Assembly: GCA_021796385.1 (NCBI GenBank)
Contig: JAJYXQ010000043.1
Span: 137,652-201,651 of the forward strand
DNA length: 64,000 nucleotides
Direction: 5' to 3'
Source: Thermoplasmata archaeon
GTDB taxonomy: Archaea; Thermoplasmatota; Thermoplasmata; Lutacidiplasmatales; UBA184
Shown here one piece after another: positions 495 through 34,158 of the stretch; position 1 is the first letter of the stretch; each line of letters starts with the position of its first letter. The notes under the pieces were generated by a model. That model did no database searches and was not told the DNA's origin. It saw only the letters and a list, made by a program, of their open reading frames with translations. A program made the translations under genes and the position numbers.

Positions 495-1520
495 CTATCT
501 TCGGCTCCGGGGCGAAATCCAGTCCCGAAGTCCATCGGAGATGAGGATGACGGAAAGGCCGAAGATGGTGATCCAAACCGCAGGGATGGCCGCTCCCCAC
601 CAATACGGTCCGAACGGCGCCCCCGCTTGAGGGGAGATCGCACCGAAGTAAACTATCCCCGCGCTCAGCGTGCTCCCCCAATCGGGATAGTTGAACGTCG
701 GGACCACCGGAGCCACGGCAGAAACGTTCGTTCGGTACATGCGACACTCAGTACCGGCCGTCGAGTTCTCGTAGTAGGTAACGAACTGGGAAGCAATGAT
801 AAAAGCCAAAATCAGAGCCACTGAGATGGGAATCTGGGCGAGGGCGGGAGAGAGGCTGTTCGGGAGGATATGCCGGATCATCAGTTGTGGCGTAGAGGCG
901 CCCGACGCCCGGGCGGACTCGACGAACGCCATCTGCCGGTTCCGTAGCGCTTCTCCCCGCACTACCCGGGCGAAGGGAGCCCACATCACTCCGACCATTG
1001 AGACCACAAACACATCAGGCCCCTGCGCCGTTGTCAGATGGGGAAGAACGATAACCACGACCAAGATGACGAAGATGAAATAGGGTATGGAAAGCAGCAT
1101 GTCCGTGATCGACATGAGGATGGAGTCCACCCTGCCACCATACGTTCCCGCGACGAGGCCGACCCCTAATCCGATGACCGCGGCCGAAAGGGATATCGAG
1201 CCGATCAAGAACAGGTCCCAACGAGAACCTGCGATCAACCCTTGCGCTACCCCGAACCCAAGATAGGCGGTCTGCCCGAGCGGATGGGGTCCAAGGGAAA
1301 AGGGAATCAGAGAAAGGGTGGGGCCCGAAGGCGCGGAACAGTGCGCGATAAGATTGGGGTCTATGGCCATTGCCGTTAGGTGCTTGGGGTAGAGATAGGG
1401 TGCAGCCATGGCTGCCGCGACAAAGCATAAGAGCAAGCCGAAGCCGGCCGAAAAGGTAGGTTGGGAAAAGAGATCGAGAAGTGATGACAGGAGAACGGAC
1501 TTCCGTGCCAAATGGTTCAT
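495..1520 (-). CDS. ABC peptide/nickel transporter permease, DppC/OppC family (paralogue 2)
   Basis: HPLGQT loop, multiple TM helices, EAA loop FVESARASGAS..LMIRHILPN, C-terminal ISDGLRDW. Confidence 0.9.
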   Translation of the reverse strand: MNHLARKSVLLSSLLDLFSQPTFSAGFGLLLCFVAAAMAAPYLYPKHLTAMAIDPNLIAHCSAPSGPTLSLIPFSLGPHPLGQTAYLGFGVAQGLIAGSRWDLFLIGSISLSAAVIGLGVGLVAGTYGGRVDSILMSITDMLLSIPYFIFVILVVVIVLPHLTTAQGPDVFVVSMVGVMWAPFARVVRGEALRNRQMAFVESARASGASTPQLMIRHILPNSLSPALAQIPISVALILAFIIASQFVTYYENSTAGTECRMYRTNVSAVAPVVPTFNYPDWGSTLSAGIVYFGAISPQAGAPFGPYWWGAAIPAVWITIFGLSVILISDGLRDWISPRSRR

Positions 1521-1680
1521 CGAACACCGTCCTTCATGGACTCACGAGTTGATTTGAATTCCGTTGGCGCGGGTAAAGTGGTACCTAAACTACGCCTTCC
1601 TCGGAAGGTCGATGGGGGCGAGAAGGAAGATCCCCCGCCGGGGAGACCCTTTCTGGAGGAAAAAGCGTGCATCTTTTCCG

Positions 1681-2706
1681 CTACTTCCTTGCCTTCGGGG
1701 AAAGCCAATCCCGGACCCCATCGGAAATGAGGACGATGGAGAGACCGAACATAGCGATCCAGACGCCGGGAAACAGCGCCCCCCACCAATAGACCCCGAA
1801 CGGATGGTCGGGTTGCGGGAGCCATCCGCCCGTAAAGGCGAGCCCGGCACTCAAGATGCCCCCCCACTCCGGGTAATTGAAGCGAGGCACCACGGGAGCC
1901 AGGGACGAAAGACCGGAGCCCATCGTAGAGCAGCTCGTTCCTCCGGACGTGATGATCGCCGTGGTGATGAACTGCGAGGTGATTATAAACGTGAGCGTCA
2001 GAGCGACGGTGACCGGTACCTGGGCAAGCGCCGGGGAAGCGCTGTTGGGGAGGATGTGGTGGAGCAGGATGCGGCCGGAGGAGGCGCCCGAGGCCTTGGC
2101 CGACTCCACATAGGTCGTCGTCCGTACGCGACTTGCTTCCCCACGAACGACCCGCGTGAAAGGGGCCCACATCACGCCATTCATGGCCCCTATGAAAACG
2201 TAAGGCCCCTCGGTCGGGGGAACTCGGGGAAGCGCGATAACGAACACGAGGATGACGAGAACGAAATAGGGAACCGAAAGGAAAGCGTCCGTGACCATCA
2301 TCACCACCCTGTCCACCCACCCCCCATATGTCCCCGAAGTGAGTCCGAGAAAGGTTCCTATCACGGTGGAGGGTACGGTGATGGCCGAGATCAGGAAAAG
2401 ATCCCACCGGGAACCGGCGATGAGCCCCTGGGCCACTCCGAAACCCATGTACTCGGTCTGGCCCAAAGGGTGATCCCCAACGGAGAAAGGGAAAAACTGA
2501 AGGGTGGGGCCCTGCGGGGCGGAACAGTGCACTAACAAGGCGGTGTCGACCGGGATCGCCGTCAGTGTCCGGGGATATAGAAACGGTGCGACCATCGCCG
2601 TTGCCACATAGAAGGAAAGAAGGGTCACTCCGGCCAAAAAGGGCGGCCGGCGCAGAAGCGACCGCAGCGATTCGGACCAGGCTTGGTAACGAGTAGAGGT
2701 GGCCAC
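1681..2706 (-). CDS. ABC peptide/nickel transporter permease, DppC/OppC family (paralogue 1)
   Basis: C-terminal 341 aa of ORF 1681..3792; GTG at 2706 overlaps upstream TAG and follows GGAGG; HPLGQT, YVESAKASGAS..HILPN, DGVRDW. Confidence 0.88.
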   Translation of the reverse strand: MATSTRYQAWSESLRSLLRRPPFLAGVTLLSFYVATAMVAPFLYPRTLTAIPVDTALLVHCSAPQGPTLQFFPFSVGDHPLGQTEYMGFGVAQGLIAGSRWDLFLISAITVPSTVIGTFLGLTSGTYGGWVDRVVMMVTDAFLSVPYFVLVILVFVIALPRVPPTEGPYVFIGAMNGVMWAPFTRVVRGEASRVRTTTYVESAKASGASSGRILLHHILPNSASPALAQVPVTVALTLTFIITSQFITTAIITSGGTSCSTMGSGLSSLAPVVPRFNYPEWGGILSAGLAFTGGWLPQPDHPFGVYWWGALFPGVWIAMFGLSIVLISDGVRDWLSPKARK

Positions 2707-24292: not shown

Positions 24293-25408
24293 CTACTGGA
24301 CGTCCATGAAGTCCATCTTGAGGATTGACCGGACCCATCCCAACGAGTCCCGAAGGAGCGACACGGCGATCTCCAGCCCGAACCAGGCGATGGCTACCAC
24401 ATTGAAGAGTCCCGCCCACATCCTCAACACAGGAAGTCCCTCAAGGTCCGCATACACCCGGACCGCCAGGGTGGACTCGATGAGTACGAACGGCAGGTAG
24501 AATGTCTTCCGGAACCTGACCTCCCGGCGCAGGATGACCCGGAGGATGACCATCGAGTGGGCCATGATCATCGAGAAGACGAACCCGAGGAAGATGGAGT
24601 GAAGGAAAGCGTCGTAGACAAGGTAGGGCAAGGTCAACCCACCCCATATCGCGATGACCGCGGCCTCCAGGAGCCAAACATACCCCGACAAGAGACAGAG
24701 TGCGACGAACCGTGTTCCCCCGGACTGTCGGACATTCAACCGCGCGATGTCGAACCGGAGCAGCCAGAGCCCGAGGCCCGCCAGGCCGGCGACGGCGCTC
24801 GACACCCCCCAGGCGAAGTCCCAAAGGCTCAGGACGGGCGCTAAGATGATGAGCCCCACGGAGAGCGTGAATGTCGCCTGCCGGAAACGCGAAGAAGCGA
24901 GCACCCGCGCGAGCTCGAGCCGTTCCGCGGCGACCAGCAGGACCAGGAAGCCAACCCACCACAGCACCATCCATGGGACCTGGCCACTGACCCACCACGC
25001 CACGTTACCCATCAGGAGGAGCACGGCACCGGCCAGCATCACGCCGGAGTGAAGAGCCGGTTGCCACCGATAGATCATGAGGAATAGACCGGTCAGTCCC
25101 GCACCGCTTGCAATCCAGACCGCGCCCGAGAGGAATTCTCCCCTGGGAGCGAGCAGGAGGAGGGCACCGGCCCCCGAGAGCATCGGCACCACAAGCGCCC
25201 AGCGTCGGTGGACCGCCACGGCCCTCTCGAGACCGATGAGCGTGGCGAGGACCCCGTTCACCATGATGGGCCCATGCATCTCCTCAAAGCCCGGCAACGG
25301 CAACGCCAGGCTCCACCCGATGAGATCCAAGGCGGCCCACAAACCGAGCGCCACTGCGATGAGCGCCAGCGGGACCGGGAGGAGCCGCAGACGCTCACCC
25401 GGCCGCAT
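24293..25408 (-). CDS. Polytopic membrane protein (NnrS-like / NO-cluster-associated type)
   Basis: About 12 TM; HGPIMVNG...LIGLERAVA, AERLELAR, DAFLHSIFLGFVFSMIMAH with conserved-looking His. Confidence 0.7.
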   Translation of the reverse strand: MRPGERLRLLPVPLALIAVALGLWAALDLIGWSLALPLPGFEEMHGPIMVNGVLATLIGLERAVAVHRRWALVVPMLSGAGALLLLAPRGEFLSGAVWIASGAGLTGLFLMIYRWQPALHSGVMLAGAVLLLMGNVAWWVSGQVPWMVLWWVGFLVLLVAAERLELARVLASSRFRQATFTLSVGLIILAPVLSLWDFAWGVSSAVAGLAGLGLWLLRFDIARLNVRQSGGTRFVALCLLSGYVWLLEAAVIAIWGGLTLPYLVYDAFLHSIFLGFVFSMIMAHSMVILRVILRREVRFRKTFYLPFVLIESTLAVRVYADLEGLPVLRMWAGLFNVVAIAWFGLEIAVSLLRDSLGWVRSILKMDFMDVQ

Positions 25409-30591: not shown

Positions 30592-30762
30592 CTACTCGTG
30601 TTCCTTGTAAGTGACGAGGTACATCCCGCCCGCGGTCATGGCCGTGAAGGCCCCTACCGCGGTGAGTGGATTGAGGCTGAAGAAGAGCCCGTCGGCCAGA
30701 AGCACAGTGAGGGGAATGCCGACCCCGACCAGTGCGGCCACGATCCTGCCCTTGGCGCTCAT
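30592..30762 (-). CDS. Small 2-TM membrane protein (56 aa), below ORF-track cut-off
   Basis: Manual translation MSAKGRIVAALVGVGIPLTVLLADGLFFSLNPLTAVGAFTAMTAGGMYLVTYKEHE*; GC3-rich codons; TTTTAA about 25 nt upstream. Confidence 0.65.
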   Translation of the reverse strand: MSAKGRIVAALVGVGIPLTVLLADGLFFSLNPLTAVGAFTAMTAGGMYLVTYKEHE

Positions 30763-30876
30763 GGGTCCCACCAGTAATCATGCCCCTTAAAATAGTTGGG
30801 GTTTGGATCTCCGGGTGCGGAGGGGGGTGTCCCGGAGACCCGTCATCGGGAAAGGTTCAATCGGCGAGAGCCCGTC

Positions 30877-31821
30877 TCATAGTGGCTCCTCCGGTGGGCG
30901 AGGGGGGGTCGGACCGCTGGGGAGCGGCTTGGGAAGCCCTCCCGTCGTTCGCACCGAGTCGGCCTCGAAAAGGAGTTCGACGTCCTGCGGAGCGTCCCGG
31001 ACCGGCATCTCCATCGGCCGGGGGTTCGCTCGGGCGGTAACACCCTCCCCCAAGGACGGGGTATCCATGGGAAGGAAGTTCGTGGACGATGATGGTACCC
31101 GCGGGATCCCCACCGCCGAACCCAGGACCTGCCCCTCACGGAGCCAGTTCACCATCGTTTCCATGGTGCTGATCGAGATGTACTTGCGCACGTGGTCGGA
31201 AATCTCGTTGGCGTAGAGATTGACGAGCCCCGAGAAGCTGAGATGAGCGTTCGAGCGGTACATCTCCTCGTTGTCCAGGACCACGATGTGGGCGCGCCCG
31301 GCCTCGTTGAGTTCGGTGAGCCCATCGAGGAACCAGAGGTTCCCCATGGTTTGGTCAGCGATCCTCCGGCGCTTTTCCTCGGCAGCGAACGGAGCGATGA
31401 GATAGAGGGTGAGGTGCGCCAGGTCGTAACTCTGTGTGGCGAGATCGATGAGGACGGGAAGAATGCCCGAGCCACTGCCGCCGCCCAGGCTGGCAACGAT
31501 CGTGGTGCAGGTCGCGCCTTGGAAGAGGGAGCGCAGGTCTTCCCGCGCCGCCAGGGCCCGCAGGGTGCTGTCCTGTACCGTGGTGTCGCCATCCGCGTCG
31601 GCATCACCCGGAAGCCCGGGGACAAAGACCTGACGGTCGAAAAGCTTCTCCTCGTACACCCGACGGTCGCAGTTCACGGCTGCGGACTCGAGGTATTGTA
31701 TCTTCCGCCGGGCGACCTCGCGCCCGACCCGTATTCCCCCGCCGCCTACCGCGACCAGCCGGAACCGAACGTCCCGGCCAAGCGCGAGTCTCCGTCCCTC
31801 AATCTCTCCCTTCGCCCCCAT
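30877..31821 (-). CDS. Divergent, C-terminally truncated FtsZ/tubulin-like GTPase
   Basis: VAVGGGG, AVNCD, tubulin signature LGGGSGSG, PF..E..R, VLDN; no recognisable T7 loop or C-domain; Pro-rich tail. Confidence 0.8.
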   Translation of the reverse strand: MGAKGEIEGRRLALGRDVRFRLVAVGGGGIRVGREVARRKIQYLESAAVNCDRRVYEEKLFDRQVFVPGLPGDADADGDTTVQDSTLRALAAREDLRSLFQGATCTTIVASLGGGSGSGILPVLIDLATQSYDLAHLTLYLIAPFAAEEKRRRIADQTMGNLWFLDGLTELNEAGRAHIVVLDNEEMYRSNAHLSFSGLVNLYANEISDHVRKYISISTMETMVNWLREGQVLGSAVGIPRVPSSSTNFLPMDTPSLGEGVTARANPRPMEMPVRDAPQDVELLFEADSVRTTGGLPKPLPSGPTPPRPPEEPL

Positions 31822-32281
31822 GGTAGTTTCCTCCCCTCTTTGACGGATGCCGTCCTCGACCCGTGGATTCGTCTGGTGAGAACTCCGGATCGGATTCCCC
31901 TGGGGTCACCGGTCGCGTGACCACGGGGGCATCCATCAACCGCTTCTCTCCTACCCGCACCATCTCGTCGACCCGGAGTGACGCAAGGCCGTAGCGGACG
32001 CACTGGGCGATCGCGTCCCCCATCTTGCCTCCGTGCACGCGTTCGGCGAACCGGCCCAGGAGATCGGTCTCCTCCGGGGTCAGGTTCGCGATCGGGCCGG
32101 CAACCGGCGCGGGTGCGTTAGACATCTCCCGCAGCCTGTCCTCGAGGAATTGCTGGATGGCGGTGCGGACGAGCGCCGAGCGGTTCCGGAAATCTCCGGC
32201 GAGGACATAGGAGTCCATCGCTTTGAGCTCCTGGGGGGAGCACCGGACCGCCAGTTTCTCTTCGCCCACCTTCTCACGCAT
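31799..32281 (-). CDS. Ribbon-helix-helix regulator (CdrS-like N-terminus) with extra C-terminal domain
   Basis: KLAVRCSPQELKAMD..V..GDFRNRSALVRTAI; directly upstream of and overlapping the ftsZ-like gene. Confidence 0.75.
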   Translation of the reverse strand: MREKVGEEKLAVRCSPQELKAMDSYVLAGDFRNRSALVRTAIQQFLEDRLREMSNAPAPVAGPIANLTPEETDLLGRFAERVHGGKMGDAIAQCVRYGLASLRVDEMVRVGEKRLMDAPVVTRPVTPGESDPEFSPDESTGRGRHPSKRGGNYHGGEGRD

Positions 32282-32288
32282 TTTCCTA

Positions 32289-32323
32289 TTTGTCGGACAA
32301 AGCCATGTGGATTTTGTCGGACA
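32289..32323. promoter_or_regulatory. Twin palindromic boxes TTTGTCGGACA (candidate RHH operator)
   Basis: 11-nt direct repeat at 32289-32299 and 32313-32323, each TGTC-G-GACA; lies between TTTAAA (32352-32357) and ATG 32281. Confidence 0.7.
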
Positions 32324-32388
32324 CCCGAAGCACTCAATCGTGCTCCTCGTATTTAAACCATTCGTTCGAGTGGAAGCCGGAGTACGTT

Positions 32389-33258
32389 TCAGCCTACGCT
32401 CGTGAGCCGTTCCACGCCATCTTCCTGCAAGAGGAACGTGGCTTCCCACTGCGACACGAGTCCGCCCGCCACCTCGATGAACACCGGATACGTCTGGACG
32501 AATCCTTTCTTCCGAAAGGGCAGCCGATGGAGCGAACGGTCCTTGACCCATCGCAGGCAGAAGGGTACCGTGCGGAACTCTTCGAAGAGGGAATGGAACT
32601 CCGGTTCCTTCGTCCGGTCTGGCTCGCTCCGGAAACGCAGGATGTTCCCGAACGGACCGTTCCCAATGGCGCCTTCCCCGTTCGTGGCGAAGGGCTCCAC
32701 CGCCACCACTTCCCCCACCTCGAGGAACGATTCGGCGATCGTCGCCGAGTTCGGAACGGACTTTCCCGCATGCAGGGAGTAGCGCTCCACGGTGTGTCCC
32801 ATCAAGTTGACGACGCTCTTGAACCCCCGACGCTGGATCGCCCCCTCGATAGCGGCGGTGACCGCCCGGGTGGACATCCCGCCATGGAGCACGCGCTCGG
32901 CCGCCTCGAGGGCCTCTCGGGAAGCGGCCAGCAGGGGGGCCCGGCGGGCCGAGCCGACCTCCACGGTCTGGGCGTTGTCGGAGATAAAGCCGTCCAAGTG
33001 CGCACCGACATCAAGCTTCACCACTTGGCCGGTCTCGAACCGCCGGTCGTAATCCGGCGGGGGCGTGAAGTGCGCCGCCTCCGTGTCGATCGAGATGTTC
33101 ACGGGGAACGAGGGCCGACACCCGGCCTTCCGGATGTGGTCCTCGATCTCTTCGGCCACCTCAAGTATCGATCGTCCCGCCTGGATGAGGGAGGTCCCAT
33201 GCTGCAGGGCCGATGCCCCTACCCGGCCCGCCGTTCGCCACTTTTCGAGCTCTTGCAT
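32389..33258 (-). CDS. map: Type II methionine aminopeptidase
   Basis: FPVNIS...AAHFTP, KLDVGAH.DG...D, NL.GH, EPFAT. Confidence 0.95.
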   Translation of the reverse strand: MQELEKWRTAGRVGASALQHGTSLIQAGRSILEVAEEIEDHIRKAGCRPSFPVNISIDTEAAHFTPPPDYDRRFETGQVVKLDVGAHLDGFISDNAQTVEVGSARRAPLLAASREALEAAERVLHGGMSTRAVTAAIEGAIQRRGFKSVVNLMGHTVERYSLHAGKSVPNSATIAESFLEVGEVVAVEPFATNGEGAIGNGPFGNILRFRSEPDRTKEPEFHSLFEEFRTVPFCLRWVKDRSLHRLPFRKKGFVQTYPVFIEVAGGLVSQWEATFLLQEDGVERLTSVG

Positions 33259-33669: not shown

Positions 33670-34158
33670 TTAGAGGTATTCCTCGTCTGTCCGGTCGTAC
33701 GGGTGGTAGTCGCTCTCTTGGAAATAGAGGGCCAGTTCCCGTTGTGCGGTGGGGACGGAGTCCGAGGCATGGACCACATTGGGTGTGAGCGCCAAGGCGA
33801 GATCCCCCCGCACGGTGCCCGGGAGGGCCTCCCATGGCTTTGTCGCCCCGTTGATCGCACGGACGACCTGGACGGCGTTCCTCCCTTCAAGAGCCATGAC
33901 AAGCACCGGAGAAGAGGTGATGAACCGGACCAGCTCGGGGAAGAAGGGTTTCTCCTTGTGCTCCTCGTAATGCCGCTTCGCCAGTTCCGGGGAGATGCGC
34001 ATGAGACGCGCAGCGACCAGTTTGAGCCCCTTGGCCTCGTAGCGGGAAAGGACTTGCCCGGCCAAGCCCCGTCGCATCCCGTCCGGTTTGATCATGACGA
34101 AGGTTCTCTCCTTCCGTGCTGCGTCCTTGGAAGGGACTGGCTGCGTGTTGTCCGACAT
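33670..34158 (-). CDS. ndk: Nucleoside diphosphate kinase
   Basis: ERTFVMIKPDG, HYEEHKEKPFF, PGTVRGD, NVVHASDS. Confidence 0.97.
   Translation of the reverse strand: MSDNTQPVPSKDAARKERTFVMIKPDGMRRGLAGQVLSRYEAKGLKLVAARLMRISPELAKRHYEEHKEKPFFPELVRFITSSPVLVMALEGRNAVQVVRAINGATKPWEALPGTVRGDLALALTPNVVHASDSVPTAQRELALYFQESDYHPYDRTDEEYL

Follow-up and report, generated by a model that had tools for sequence, protein, structure and literature searches.

What can one half of an FtsZ subunit do for a cell? Subunits of the tubulin family are two-faced, with a nucleotide face on one side and, on the other, a face formed by the T7 loop and the C-terminal domain (C-domain) that completes the active site of the neighbouring subunit. 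The question is raised by a locus in a 64,000-nucleotide (nt) stretch of DNA, here called the window, from a Thermoplasmata archaeon of the Lutacidiplasmatales (GenBank assembly GCA_021796385.1, contig JAJYXQ010000043.1, positions 137,652 to 201,651), where a gene for a tandem ribbon-helix-helix (RHH) protein of 160 amino acids (aa) precedes the gene for a 314-aa FtsZ-family protein. An initial annotation, made from the letters alone, described the latter as a truncated FtsZ-like GTPase, possibly an undescribed subfamily derived from the cdrS-ftsZ module. Our analysis identifies this protein, hereafter half-FtsZ, as a one-faced member of the tubulin family that is kept under selection. Its exact form is confined to one family (f1, to which the genome of the window belongs), and the general design was found in all 12 other families of the class that were read.

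Half-FtsZ keeps only the GTP-binding half of FtsZ

The motifs on which the initial annotation relied (VGGGG, NCD, LGGGSGSG, PF..E..R and VLDN) are all present in the 314-aa open reading frame (ORF), as VAVGGGG (residues 23-29), NCD (50-52), SLGGGSGSG (111-119), PF..E..RR (144-152) and VLDNE (181-185), and the glycine-rich signature of the FtsZ/tubulin superfamily, GGGTG(S/T)G, appears as GGGSGSG at residues 113-119. A Pfam scan assigned residues 22-189 to the Tubulin family (PF00091; E 2.4e-11, 44.7 bits against a cut-off of 33), gave a weak Tubulin_2 match (E 0.04) as the sole other entry and detected no FtsZ_C (PF12327) in the protein. Sequence matches in the Protein Data Bank (PDB) are FtsZs (E 1e-9) and span only about residues 13-160; TubZ chains match more weakly (E 1.3e-5).

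Structure prediction and alignment agree on where the resemblance ends. The AlphaFold2 model, built from a family alignment of 27 rows, has a mean predicted local distance difference test score (pLDDT) of 78, rising above 90 in the N-terminal domain (N-domain). Helix H7 occupies residues 196-216 of the model, no strand is found beyond residue 183, and residues 231-272 fall below a pLDDT of 50. FtsZ structures are the top PDB matches of this model in Foldseek (E ~3e-11), with ~200 of ~305 columns aligned. Profile-profile alignment (hhalign) with 14 full-length FtsZs of the phylum (E 3.6e-22) ends at residue 212, in the middle of H7, with no T7/H8 homology after it, and a MAFFT multiple alignment places a single long gap across T7, H8 and the C-domain. 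In neither alignment does half-FtsZ show a T7 loop with its catalytic acid (NxDxxD/E) after H7. Furthermore, a search of the whole genome in six frames for FtsZ_C matched the three full-length ftsZ genes only, revealing no hidden or separately encoded C-domain. The proposed loss of T7 loop and C-domain is thus confirmed by Pfam, hhalign, AlphaFold2 and the six-frame search; a frameshift concealing an intact C-domain is excluded by the last of these, and the structural model contains no folded FtsZ C-domain.

The tail had been described as merely rich in Pro, Ser, Thr and Glu. This holds for a disordered Pro-rich linker, and fails to account for two further elements: the invariant E221, in a short helix just past H7, and a conserved peptide at residues 280-288. 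Linker and short conserved C-terminal peptide together form an FtsZ-like layout. By its position the short helix with E221 may be equivalent to T7/H8. We do not claim the tail peptide as a SepF-binding 'GID'-type peptide, to which it bears only a loose resemblance: hydrophobic residues stand at positions i and i+2 in aELtFEv, compared with GIDF(V/I)R in FtsZ tails.

Overall, half-FtsZ shares 17-20% identity with FtsZs. An f1-specific insert of 10 residues lies between H5 and S6 (residues 161-171, window positions 31310-31339) and includes a helix at residues 166-173 in the model; this insert is missing from canonical FtsZs and from the other short forms described below.

The truncation is conserved and the genes are real

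A search of 5.8 billion proteins, which admitted candidates of up to 550 aa, returned 63 homologues, 62 of them 270-316 aa in length and none longer. Their named sources are Thermoplasmata or Thermoplasmatota proteins from metagenome-assembled genomes. An exhaustive search of representative proteins gave 7 matches at E <=1e-30 and 18 at E <=1e-10, with ordinary FtsZs starting at about 1e-8, and in the ESM Atlas half-FtsZ falls within a Thermoplasmatota cluster of 71 members. Among 401 Thermoplasmatota genomes, matches to the full-length profile (E <=4e-96) occur in 10, which are all 10 of the sampled f1 genomes; the next best match (E 1e-27) covers the GTPase part alone. Full-length orthologues in relatives, which would have exposed the truncation as a local accident, were therefore found neither among the 63 homologues nor in the 401 genomes.

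The family alignment locates the constraint. Invariant in 27 of 27 sequences are G26, G27, D52, G113, G114, G117, P144, F145, E148, R151, R152, D183, N184 and E185, which belong to loops T1 (GG), T2 (N.D), T4 (GGG.G.G), T5 (PF..E..RR) and T6 (LDNE). Equally invariant are E221, just past H7, and, within the tail peptide, E282 and E286.

Environmental sequence data are consistent with this picture. DNA run X7 contains a related strain with differences at 55 of ~2080 positions of the stretch; third codon positions account for 21 of the 23 listed differences inside the half-FtsZ gene, a further 17 differences on the stretch lying outside those listed. Near-identical DNA is present in mine-drainage and sediment metagenomes, several runs of which may be the assembly's own source, and the same contig sequence recurs in several DNA runs. 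Contigs from the metatranscriptome runs X9 and X10 span window positions 31121-31360, 31843-32101 and 32108-32260, that is parts of both the half-FtsZ and the RHH gene, which gives a weak hint of expression, as DNA carry-over in RNA libraries is possible. The remainder of the stretch, the small downstream gene included, is uncovered in these two runs, which carries no weight either way. Taken together, the module consists of real genes under purifying selection.

Short FtsZs with tandem RHH partners occur across the class

Outside f1, the pair of a tandem RHH protein and an N-domain-only FtsZ was read in 21 of 21 loci from 12 other families. More specifically, in all 13 loci from families f2, f7, f8 and f9 the tandem RHH gene immediately precedes the gene for a 232-296-aa FtsZ-like protein, which stops shortly past H7 and carries a lineage-specific tail; the three of these short proteins scanned by Pfam contain the Tubulin domain alone. 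Eight more loci (f54, f58, f6, f64, f53, f61, f69 and f63) are of the same kind, with ORFs or open frames of 267-299 aa and an RHH gene seen upstream in seven of them. Tail motifs at these short-form loci (L020, L035-L046 and L052-L059) include YPIE(V/T)LI(S/K)A and GVLPSILSNPLPQ. Among 150 listed matches in 121 genomes of the class, at least 39, from 12 families, lie in open frames of <=300 aa, the short forms having been verified at the named loci only. Some genomes, such as G314 (L023 and L043), hold both full-length and short RHH-linked copies. Because such N-domain-only forms exist, surveys that score any PF00091 match as 'FtsZ present' can overstate the canonical divisome.

Half-FtsZ derives from an RHH-linked FtsZ lineage

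Four tubulin-family genes, half-FtsZ included, were found in the genome of the window. Two encode canonical FtsZs (385 and 380 aa) in which FtsZ_C is present and which score 418 and 393 bits on the FtsZ equivalog model TIGR00065. A third full-length FtsZ is divergent (343 aa, 163 bits, FtsZ_C at E 2e-7), and half-FtsZ reaches 32 bits against the cut-off of 295.2. SepF is also present. As a separate observation, the 343-aa FtsZ gene (G000:C75:86252-89740; at 1024-2055 of L003) is preceded by a 124-aa tandem-RHH gene (2052-2426, both on the minus strand) with a 4-nt overlap, and the two form a second RHH-ftsZ module in this genome.

Maximum-likelihood trees were built on 187 columns of the N-domain. 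Their clades are named by gene context, namely secE beside the FtsZ copies of locus L049 in the canonical clade and RHH genes upstream in the other, as no named FtsZ1 or FtsZ2 references were included. The short f1 family forms a clade of its own (100/99), whose stem is very long at 1.6-2.4 changes per site. In both trees it branches among the RHH-linked FtsZs (support for that clade 87/97 and 93/95), outside the clade formed by the two canonical FtsZs and the secE-adjacent copies. A forced grouping with the canonical FtsZs, chosen after the tree had been seen, was rejected by the approximately unbiased (AU) test (p 0.014). Its placement within the RHH-linked clade is unstable: one tree joins it to the other short forms, the second to full-length FtsZs linked to a tandem RHH gene. 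A topology uniting every short form in one clade was not rejected (p 0.32).

The RHH partner genes point the same way as the trees. The f1 RHH profile matches the partners of other short forms over both repeats (E 2.9e-14, 99 columns) and those of full-length forms over one repeat only (E 2.8e-6, 44 columns). Judged from these sequence comparisons, the module has branched off and diverged from the RHH-linked ftsZ lineage, and it coexists with two canonical FtsZs, a third FtsZ and SepF.

These results bear out the origin that the initial annotation had proposed, from an RHH-linked module of the cdrS-ftsZ type, which is supported by an upstream RHH gene in all nine other f1 loci, by both trees and by the AU test. 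Its suggestion that the protein is distinct from FtsZ1, FtsZ2 and CetZ is upheld by the TIGR00065 score, by the N-domain trees and by the lack of a C-domain of any kind. The subfamily also appears to be undescribed: we found no account of it, nor any description of an archaeal N-domain-only FtsZ, in the literature searched (supplements and subscription journals were outside the scope of the search). Missing from the initial annotation are the conserved tail peptide, the tandem make-up of the RHH protein with its palindromes, the small membrane-protein gene downstream and the spread of the design through the class.

A tandem RHH regulator and its candidate operator

The RHH gene lies upstream of the half-FtsZ gene as first described, and the two ORFs overlap by 23 nt. 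Its protein is laid out as a first RHH repeat (residues 8-52), a degenerate second repeat (~66-102) and a helix (104-117), and is modelled as two helix-helix units plus a helix. On the protein of the window itself the RHH_1 match (PF01402) is under the cut-off (E 0.0057); seven of the 10 members of its family do match RHH_1, the best at E 1.5e-7. A Foldseek search with the model gave weak matches to RHH antitoxins, none at E <=0.001. The CdrS equivalog model NF058555 scores 16.5 bits against a cut-off of 100. A homologous gene of ~150-175 aa stands directly upstream in each of the nine other f1 loci, and the f1 alignment shows an invariant first RHH unit, a second unit (VPVRLRPEE..., degenerate in the genus of the window), the helix and a conserved C-terminal peptide, DLERxGVVGR.

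Upstream of the RHH gene lies a double palindrome, formed by two exact copies of an 11-nt repeat with the palindrome TGTC-N-GACA (TGTCNGACA) as its core, placed 24 bp apart before the ATG at 32281. A TATA-like TTTAAATA is found 27 nt upstream of palindrome 1, which would put this palindrome at about the expected transcription start. Genome-wide, TGTCNGACA is not enriched (25 copies, where 11 control palindromes matched in composition have 8-79), but nowhere else in the 2.28-Mb genome than at the RHH promoter do two copies lie within 60 bp of each other. Position is more telling across genomes: TGTC-N-GACA occurs 30-140 bp upstream of the RHH strand codon in 15 of 37 loci from many families (the 37 being the fetched loci with an RHH signature), compared with 0-1 of 37 for the 11 control palindromes at the same position. 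The remaining seven f1 loci carry a variant, TGTTCGACA, at 67-79 bp; as this variant coincides with the codons of a 'VFDK' N-terminus, the true start of those seven RHH genes may be downstream of the operator.

In the haloarchaeon H. volcanii, HvCdrS is reported to bind a symmetric motif at 18 sites, the ftsZ1 upstream region included (Liao et al., 2021, PMC8406309), and cdrS is described as co-transcribed with ftsZ2 at a widely conserved locus (Darnell et al., 2020, PMC7439475). The double palindrome at the RHH promoter fits this published CdrS biology. We hypothesize that TGTC-N-GACA is a candidate phylum-wide operator of the CdrS type, and that the 160-aa RHH protein may auto-repress its own operon.

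Further occurrences of the palindrome were noted. RHH-ftsZ operons from many families in the phylum are preceded by TGTC-N-GACA, frequently at a constant distance of ~113-118 bp, and the loci bearing it include L015, L019, L022, L024, L029-L034, L037, L053, L056, L059, L049 and L050. In the last two, from genome G172, exact copies precede two ftsZ genes that have no RHH gene beside them. An exact copy is absent from the ftsZ1, ftsZ2, third ftsZ and sepF loci of the window's own genome (L001-L003 and L048). Single copies also occur in the window at 24726-24734 and at 34149-34157, the latter falling between the divergently oriented ndk and peroxiredoxin genes or within the regions where they start. 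This gives four copies in the window where about one is expected, a number reached in 2 of 100 shuffles.

A small membrane protein accompanies the f1 form

In 8 of 10 f1 genomes the next gene downstream of half-FtsZ, on the same strand, encodes a protein of 54-60 aa with two predicted transmembrane (2-TM) segments, seen as a pair of hydrophobic helices, together with an SNPL turn and a YLLTYTE-like C-terminal end. In the window its ORF extends over 30592-30762 or 30771 depending on the choice of start. A profile of this protein matched 12 of 12 f1 genomes (one of them unpublished), and in 109 other genomes of the class gave three marginal matches (E ~5e-4), all within longer ORFs of 111-396 aa. 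The range of the 2-TM protein is thus that of the f1-type half-FtsZ, with hardly a trace elsewhere in the class.

A one-faced brake on assembly, and its alternatives

FtsZ is reported to hydrolyse GTP at a site formed on subunit association (PMC8936486) and to add subunits at the bottom end (bioRxiv 10.1101/2020.02.25.965095). Our leading proposal, which we hold tentatively, is that half-FtsZ would not form filaments and would instead act on the assembly of FtsZ-family proteins as a tethered, one-faced, GTP-binding brake or organiser, its dose controlled by the RHH protein. Half-FtsZ would bind GTP, as may be expected because loops T1, T4, T5 and T6 are invariant. Of the two faces of a tubulin-fold subunit it would expose just one, the nucleotide ('top') face, onto which a full-length member of the FtsZ family could dock with its T7 ('bottom') face. 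Half-FtsZ would then neither activate hydrolysis in a next subunit nor recruit one, making it a chain terminator or a one-faced partner. Linker and peptide, and in f1 probably also the 2-TM protein, would tether it, and the RHH protein would set its dose by auto-repressing the operon. A role of the 2-TM protein as membrane tether is suggested by its co-occurrence with the short FtsZ, whose phyletic range it shares and next to which it is encoded in most f1 genomes. The filament capper, inhibitor or switch envisaged in the initial annotation may each be a possible role, one weakened as a general explanation by family f2, discussed below.

Several observations weigh against a brake on FtsZ-family assembly. 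The T3 loop is degenerate in the genus of the window, which has DADADGDTTV where the f1 consensus is DTGGSP. Moreover, the position aligned to the H7 Asp of FtsZ, a residue that contacts guanine, is Ala or Gly in half-FtsZ. Both features make GTP specificity and sensing of the gamma-phosphate uncertain. The extreme divergence of the f1 family, seen in its stem length and low identity, means that its top face may no longer fit FtsZ. As to the tether, the 2-TM gene has a TATA-like box of its own, and in 2 of 10 f1 genomes it is found on a different contig. Nor need the f1 half-FtsZ be an orthologue of the other short forms.

A further objection comes from family f2. In 12 of 12 sampled f2 genomes (G126, G192, G341, G215 and eight more), the short form is the single strong tubulin-family match. 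FtsZ_C was detected in none of the four f2 genomes searched, and neither SepF nor Snf7 in any of the three searched for them, which for SepF were 95-99% complete. As short forms persist there, the wider group cannot depend on canonical FtsZ or SepF as an obligatory partner, which makes strict capping of canonical FtsZ less convincing as an account of all these proteins. Some Thermoplasmata lineages have been reported as 'FtsZ only', without SepF (PMC10936438). In two of the four f2 genomes searched with PF00091 there is, in addition, a divergent tubulin-fold ORF of ~288 aa that gives a weak match. This ORF resembles a 306-aa divergent tubulin-fold protein of genome G172, which shares 23% identity over 258 aa, into the C-domain region, with the 343-aa paralogue of the window's genome. 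The 306-aa protein is encoded at L051 (G172:C1:1421000-1424000; ORF 1047-1967, plus strand) and has a degenerate signature, GGETGS, and a shortened T7 region.

The f2 genomes favour the main rival explanation, which is possible and, on balance, unlikely: half-FtsZ would be an autonomous GTP switch, a nucleotide-dependent partner of the tandem-RHH protein, the 2-TM protein or both, that does not touch FtsZ filaments. It might, for instance, sequester and release the RHH regulator, or signal at the membrane. The tandem RHH gene is the only partner kept in every lineage examined (9 of 9 f1 loci, 13 of 13 and 7 of 8 others), f2 genomes retain the pair although canonical FtsZ and SepF were not detected in them, and both proteins carry short conserved C-terminal peptides, aELtFEv and DLERxGVVGR. 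Prediction of a complex between half-FtsZ and the RHH protein scored 0.01 against a mark of 0.32, which speaks neither for nor against binding. Hydrolysis in the tubulin fold, on the other hand, needs a residue supplied in trans, and no donor was identified. Nor are we aware of a tubulin-fold protein that works as a monomeric switch.

A more far-reaching conjecture, which we regard as doubtful, is that the tandem RHH protein and half-FtsZ constitute an ancient, class-wide and self-sufficient minimal tubulin-fold system, whose hydrolysis or assembly would be completed in trans by E282/E286, by E221 or by a partner. In f2, perhaps together with the ~288-aa protein, such a system could be the core of an undescribed division or membrane-remodelling machine.

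Self-assembly through a new interface is improbable in our judgement. Here the E221 helix or the E282/E286 peptide would replace T7, giving homo-oligomers or filaments without a C-domain. Invariant acidic residues do stand exactly at the T7/H8 place after H7 and in the tethered peptide, and the short FtsZ is the best-conserved tubulin-type gene of the f2 genomes. Nevertheless, the alignments show no T7/H8 homology, the tail motifs vary between lineages, and half of the canonical longitudinal interface is gone.

Less plausible still is a DNA-partition-like pair akin to TubR-TubZ or ParR-ParM, with the RHH protein as centromere-binding adaptor and the tubulin-like NTPase as motor. The idea draws on an RHH DNA-binding protein beside a cytoskeletal-type NTPase with a flexible conserved tail, on repeated palindromes upstream, on the weak TubZ matches and on a feature-level resemblance to viral tubulins (0.89) that is a lead only. 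It is opposed by the chromosomal locus with its housekeeping neighbours and vertical conservation across the class, by the far closer relationship to FtsZ, and by the palindromic sites, only two in number and set over the promoter in the manner of an operator; it is also hard to see how a motor could work without a polymerising face. Finally, that half-FtsZ is a pseudogene, a frameshifted or split gene or an assembly artefact of a full-length ftsZ has nothing but its short length to recommend it and can be dismissed with near certainty, given that length and tail motif are kept in 62 of 63 homologues, that the listed strain differences in the gene fall mostly on third codon positions, that several DNA runs contain the same contig sequence and that FtsZ_C signal is absent in every frame near the locus.

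Comparison with known systems

The module resembles the cdrS-ftsZ2 operon of Halobacteria, as reported in PMC7439475 and PMC8406309, in having a small RHH gene immediately upstream of an ftsZ paralogue on the same strand, in that the RHH protein there is a division-tied transcription factor whose H. volcanii form binds a symmetric motif, and in the position of half-FtsZ within the RHH-linked FtsZ clade. It differs in its RHH protein, a 160-aa tandem with a C-terminal helix where CdrS is a single RHH of ~60 aa, in its FtsZ partner, which lacks T7 and the C-domain, and in the f1-specific 2-TM gene downstream.

With canonical archaeal FtsZ1 and FtsZ2 (TIGR00065; described by Pende et al., 2021, PMC8178401), half-FtsZ shares the GTPase fold, loops T1, T4, T5 and T6, helix H7, and a disordered linker followed by a short conserved C-terminal peptide. 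Unlike them, it has no T7 loop and no C-terminal (GTPase-activating) domain, it carries the 10-residue insert before S6, and its peptide is aELtFEv where the tails of 10 FtsZs in the genome set have a 'GID' motif.

Shortened FtsZs are also found in bacteria. Truncated paralogues of the Hyphomicrobiales, such as A. tumefaciens FtsZ1, are described as conserved, shortened duplicates beside a full-length FtsZ; overexpression of A. tumefaciens FtsZ1 inhibits division, and a regulatory role has been proposed (Aubry et al., 2025, bioRxiv 10.1101/2025.09.29.679267). Their truncation, as reported there, is the opposite one: they keep the whole globular GTPase core and lack linker and tail, whereas half-FtsZ has lost half of the core and kept linker and tail.

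The FtsZl1 and FtsZl2 families, as described by Makarova and Koonin (2010, PMC2875224), likewise have divergent FtsZ-like N-domains, and in FtsZl1 counterparts of T6-H7 and of the C-domain are reported as not identifiable. In that description, however, FtsZl1 proteins are ~1000 aa long and combine a coiled coil with an alpha-helical C-domain, FtsZl2 proteins retain T7 ahead of a ~300-aa C-terminal region, and the gene contexts involve vWA and OmpA. Half-FtsZ, by contrast, keeps H7 and occurs with RHH and 2-TM genes; at 314 aa, with a disordered tail and no T7, it does not fit membership in either family as described in that source.

Two other assignments were rejected. Membership in CetZ is contradicted by the lack of a CetZ-type or other C-domain, the Pfam content being Tubulin and a weak Tubulin_2 only, and membership in TubZ/PhuZ by the nearer match to FtsZ (1e-9 compared with 1.3e-5), the Tubulin_2 E of 0.04 and the chromosomal housekeeping context. 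Engineered one-face FtsZ mutants block one interface by point mutation. FtsZ end-cappers of the MipZ type (PMC9897490) likewise block one filament end or interface, the action proposed here for half-FtsZ; they have unrelated folds, whereas half-FtsZ would do so as a natural paralogue without a whole face. The half-FtsZ module would thus represent an unreported variation on the known RHH-linked (cdrS-ftsZ2-type) operon, falling outside FtsZ, CdrS, CetZ, TubZ and FtsZl1/FtsZl2 as these are currently defined.

Half-FtsZ is in effect a natural experiment on half an FtsZ, whether the outcome is capping, nucleation, switching or a new mode of assembly, and bears on the minimum that a tubulin fold needs for function. 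It also offers a testable handle on division control in Thermoplasmata, including the lineages reported as 'FtsZ only' without SepF (PMC10936438).

Organisation of the locus

Features of the module are collected in Table 1. The genes form a minus-strand row of four, with a methionine aminopeptidase-type gene (32389-33258) ahead of the RHH gene, half-FtsZ and the small ORF. Signs of mobile elements were not found in the window, and G+C is even across it. The neighbours are housekeeping genes: the M24 peptidase (map), nucleoside-diphosphate kinase (ndk) and peroxiredoxin.

Table 1. Features of the RHH and half-FtsZ module, in window coordinates.
Feature	Position	Strand	Evidence
N-domain-only FtsZ-family protein, 314 aa	30877..31821	(-)	ORF, Pfam, PDB matches, AlphaFold2, Foldseek, hhalign
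GTPase (Rossmann-type) domain and helix H7, residues 18-216	31174..31770	(-)	pLDDT >90; Pfam and hhalign coverage
Short helix, residues 219-228, with invariant E221, at the place of the T7 loop/H8 after H7	31138..31167	(-)	Model, alignment
Disordered, variable Pro/Ser-rich linker, residues 231-279	30985..31131	(-)	pLDDT <50 for 231-272; variable alignment columns
Conserved C-terminal peptide DVELLFEAD, residues 280-288 (family consensus aELtFEv)	30958..30984	(-)	Alignment
Tandem ribbon-helix-helix protein, 160 aa, CdrS-like regulator	31799..32281	(-)	RHH matches, alignment, model
Putative TATA-like box (TTTAAATA) of the RHH gene	32350..32357	(-)	Read from sequence; promoter role inferred
Palindrome 1, TGTC-N-GACA, candidate RHH operator	32315..32323	(.)	Sequence; pairing and position statistics
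Palindrome 2, TGTC-N-GACA, 10 nt before ATG	32291..32299	(.)	Sequence; pairing and position statistics
Small 2-TM protein, 56 aa from ATG, SNPL loop, C-terminal YL.TY.E, f1-specific	30592..30762	(-)	f1 comparison, profile search
Putative TATA-like box (TATTTTAA) of the small membrane-protein gene	30787..30794	(-)	Read from sequence; 25 nt before ATG; inferred

Some other FtsZ arrangements were observed in passing. The 385-aa FtsZ of the window's genome (L001, C53) ends in ...PASFEIESVF after a poly-Pro linker, unlike the GID-type tails (such as GIDF(V/I)R) of the other FtsZs examined. Locus L049 (G172:C1:1721000-1726000) holds two tandem full-length ftsZ genes, of 385 and 387 aa, beside a secE-like gene, and the 731-aa protein P0076 of the representative library contains two complete FtsZ-like units in tandem, a fused double FtsZ.

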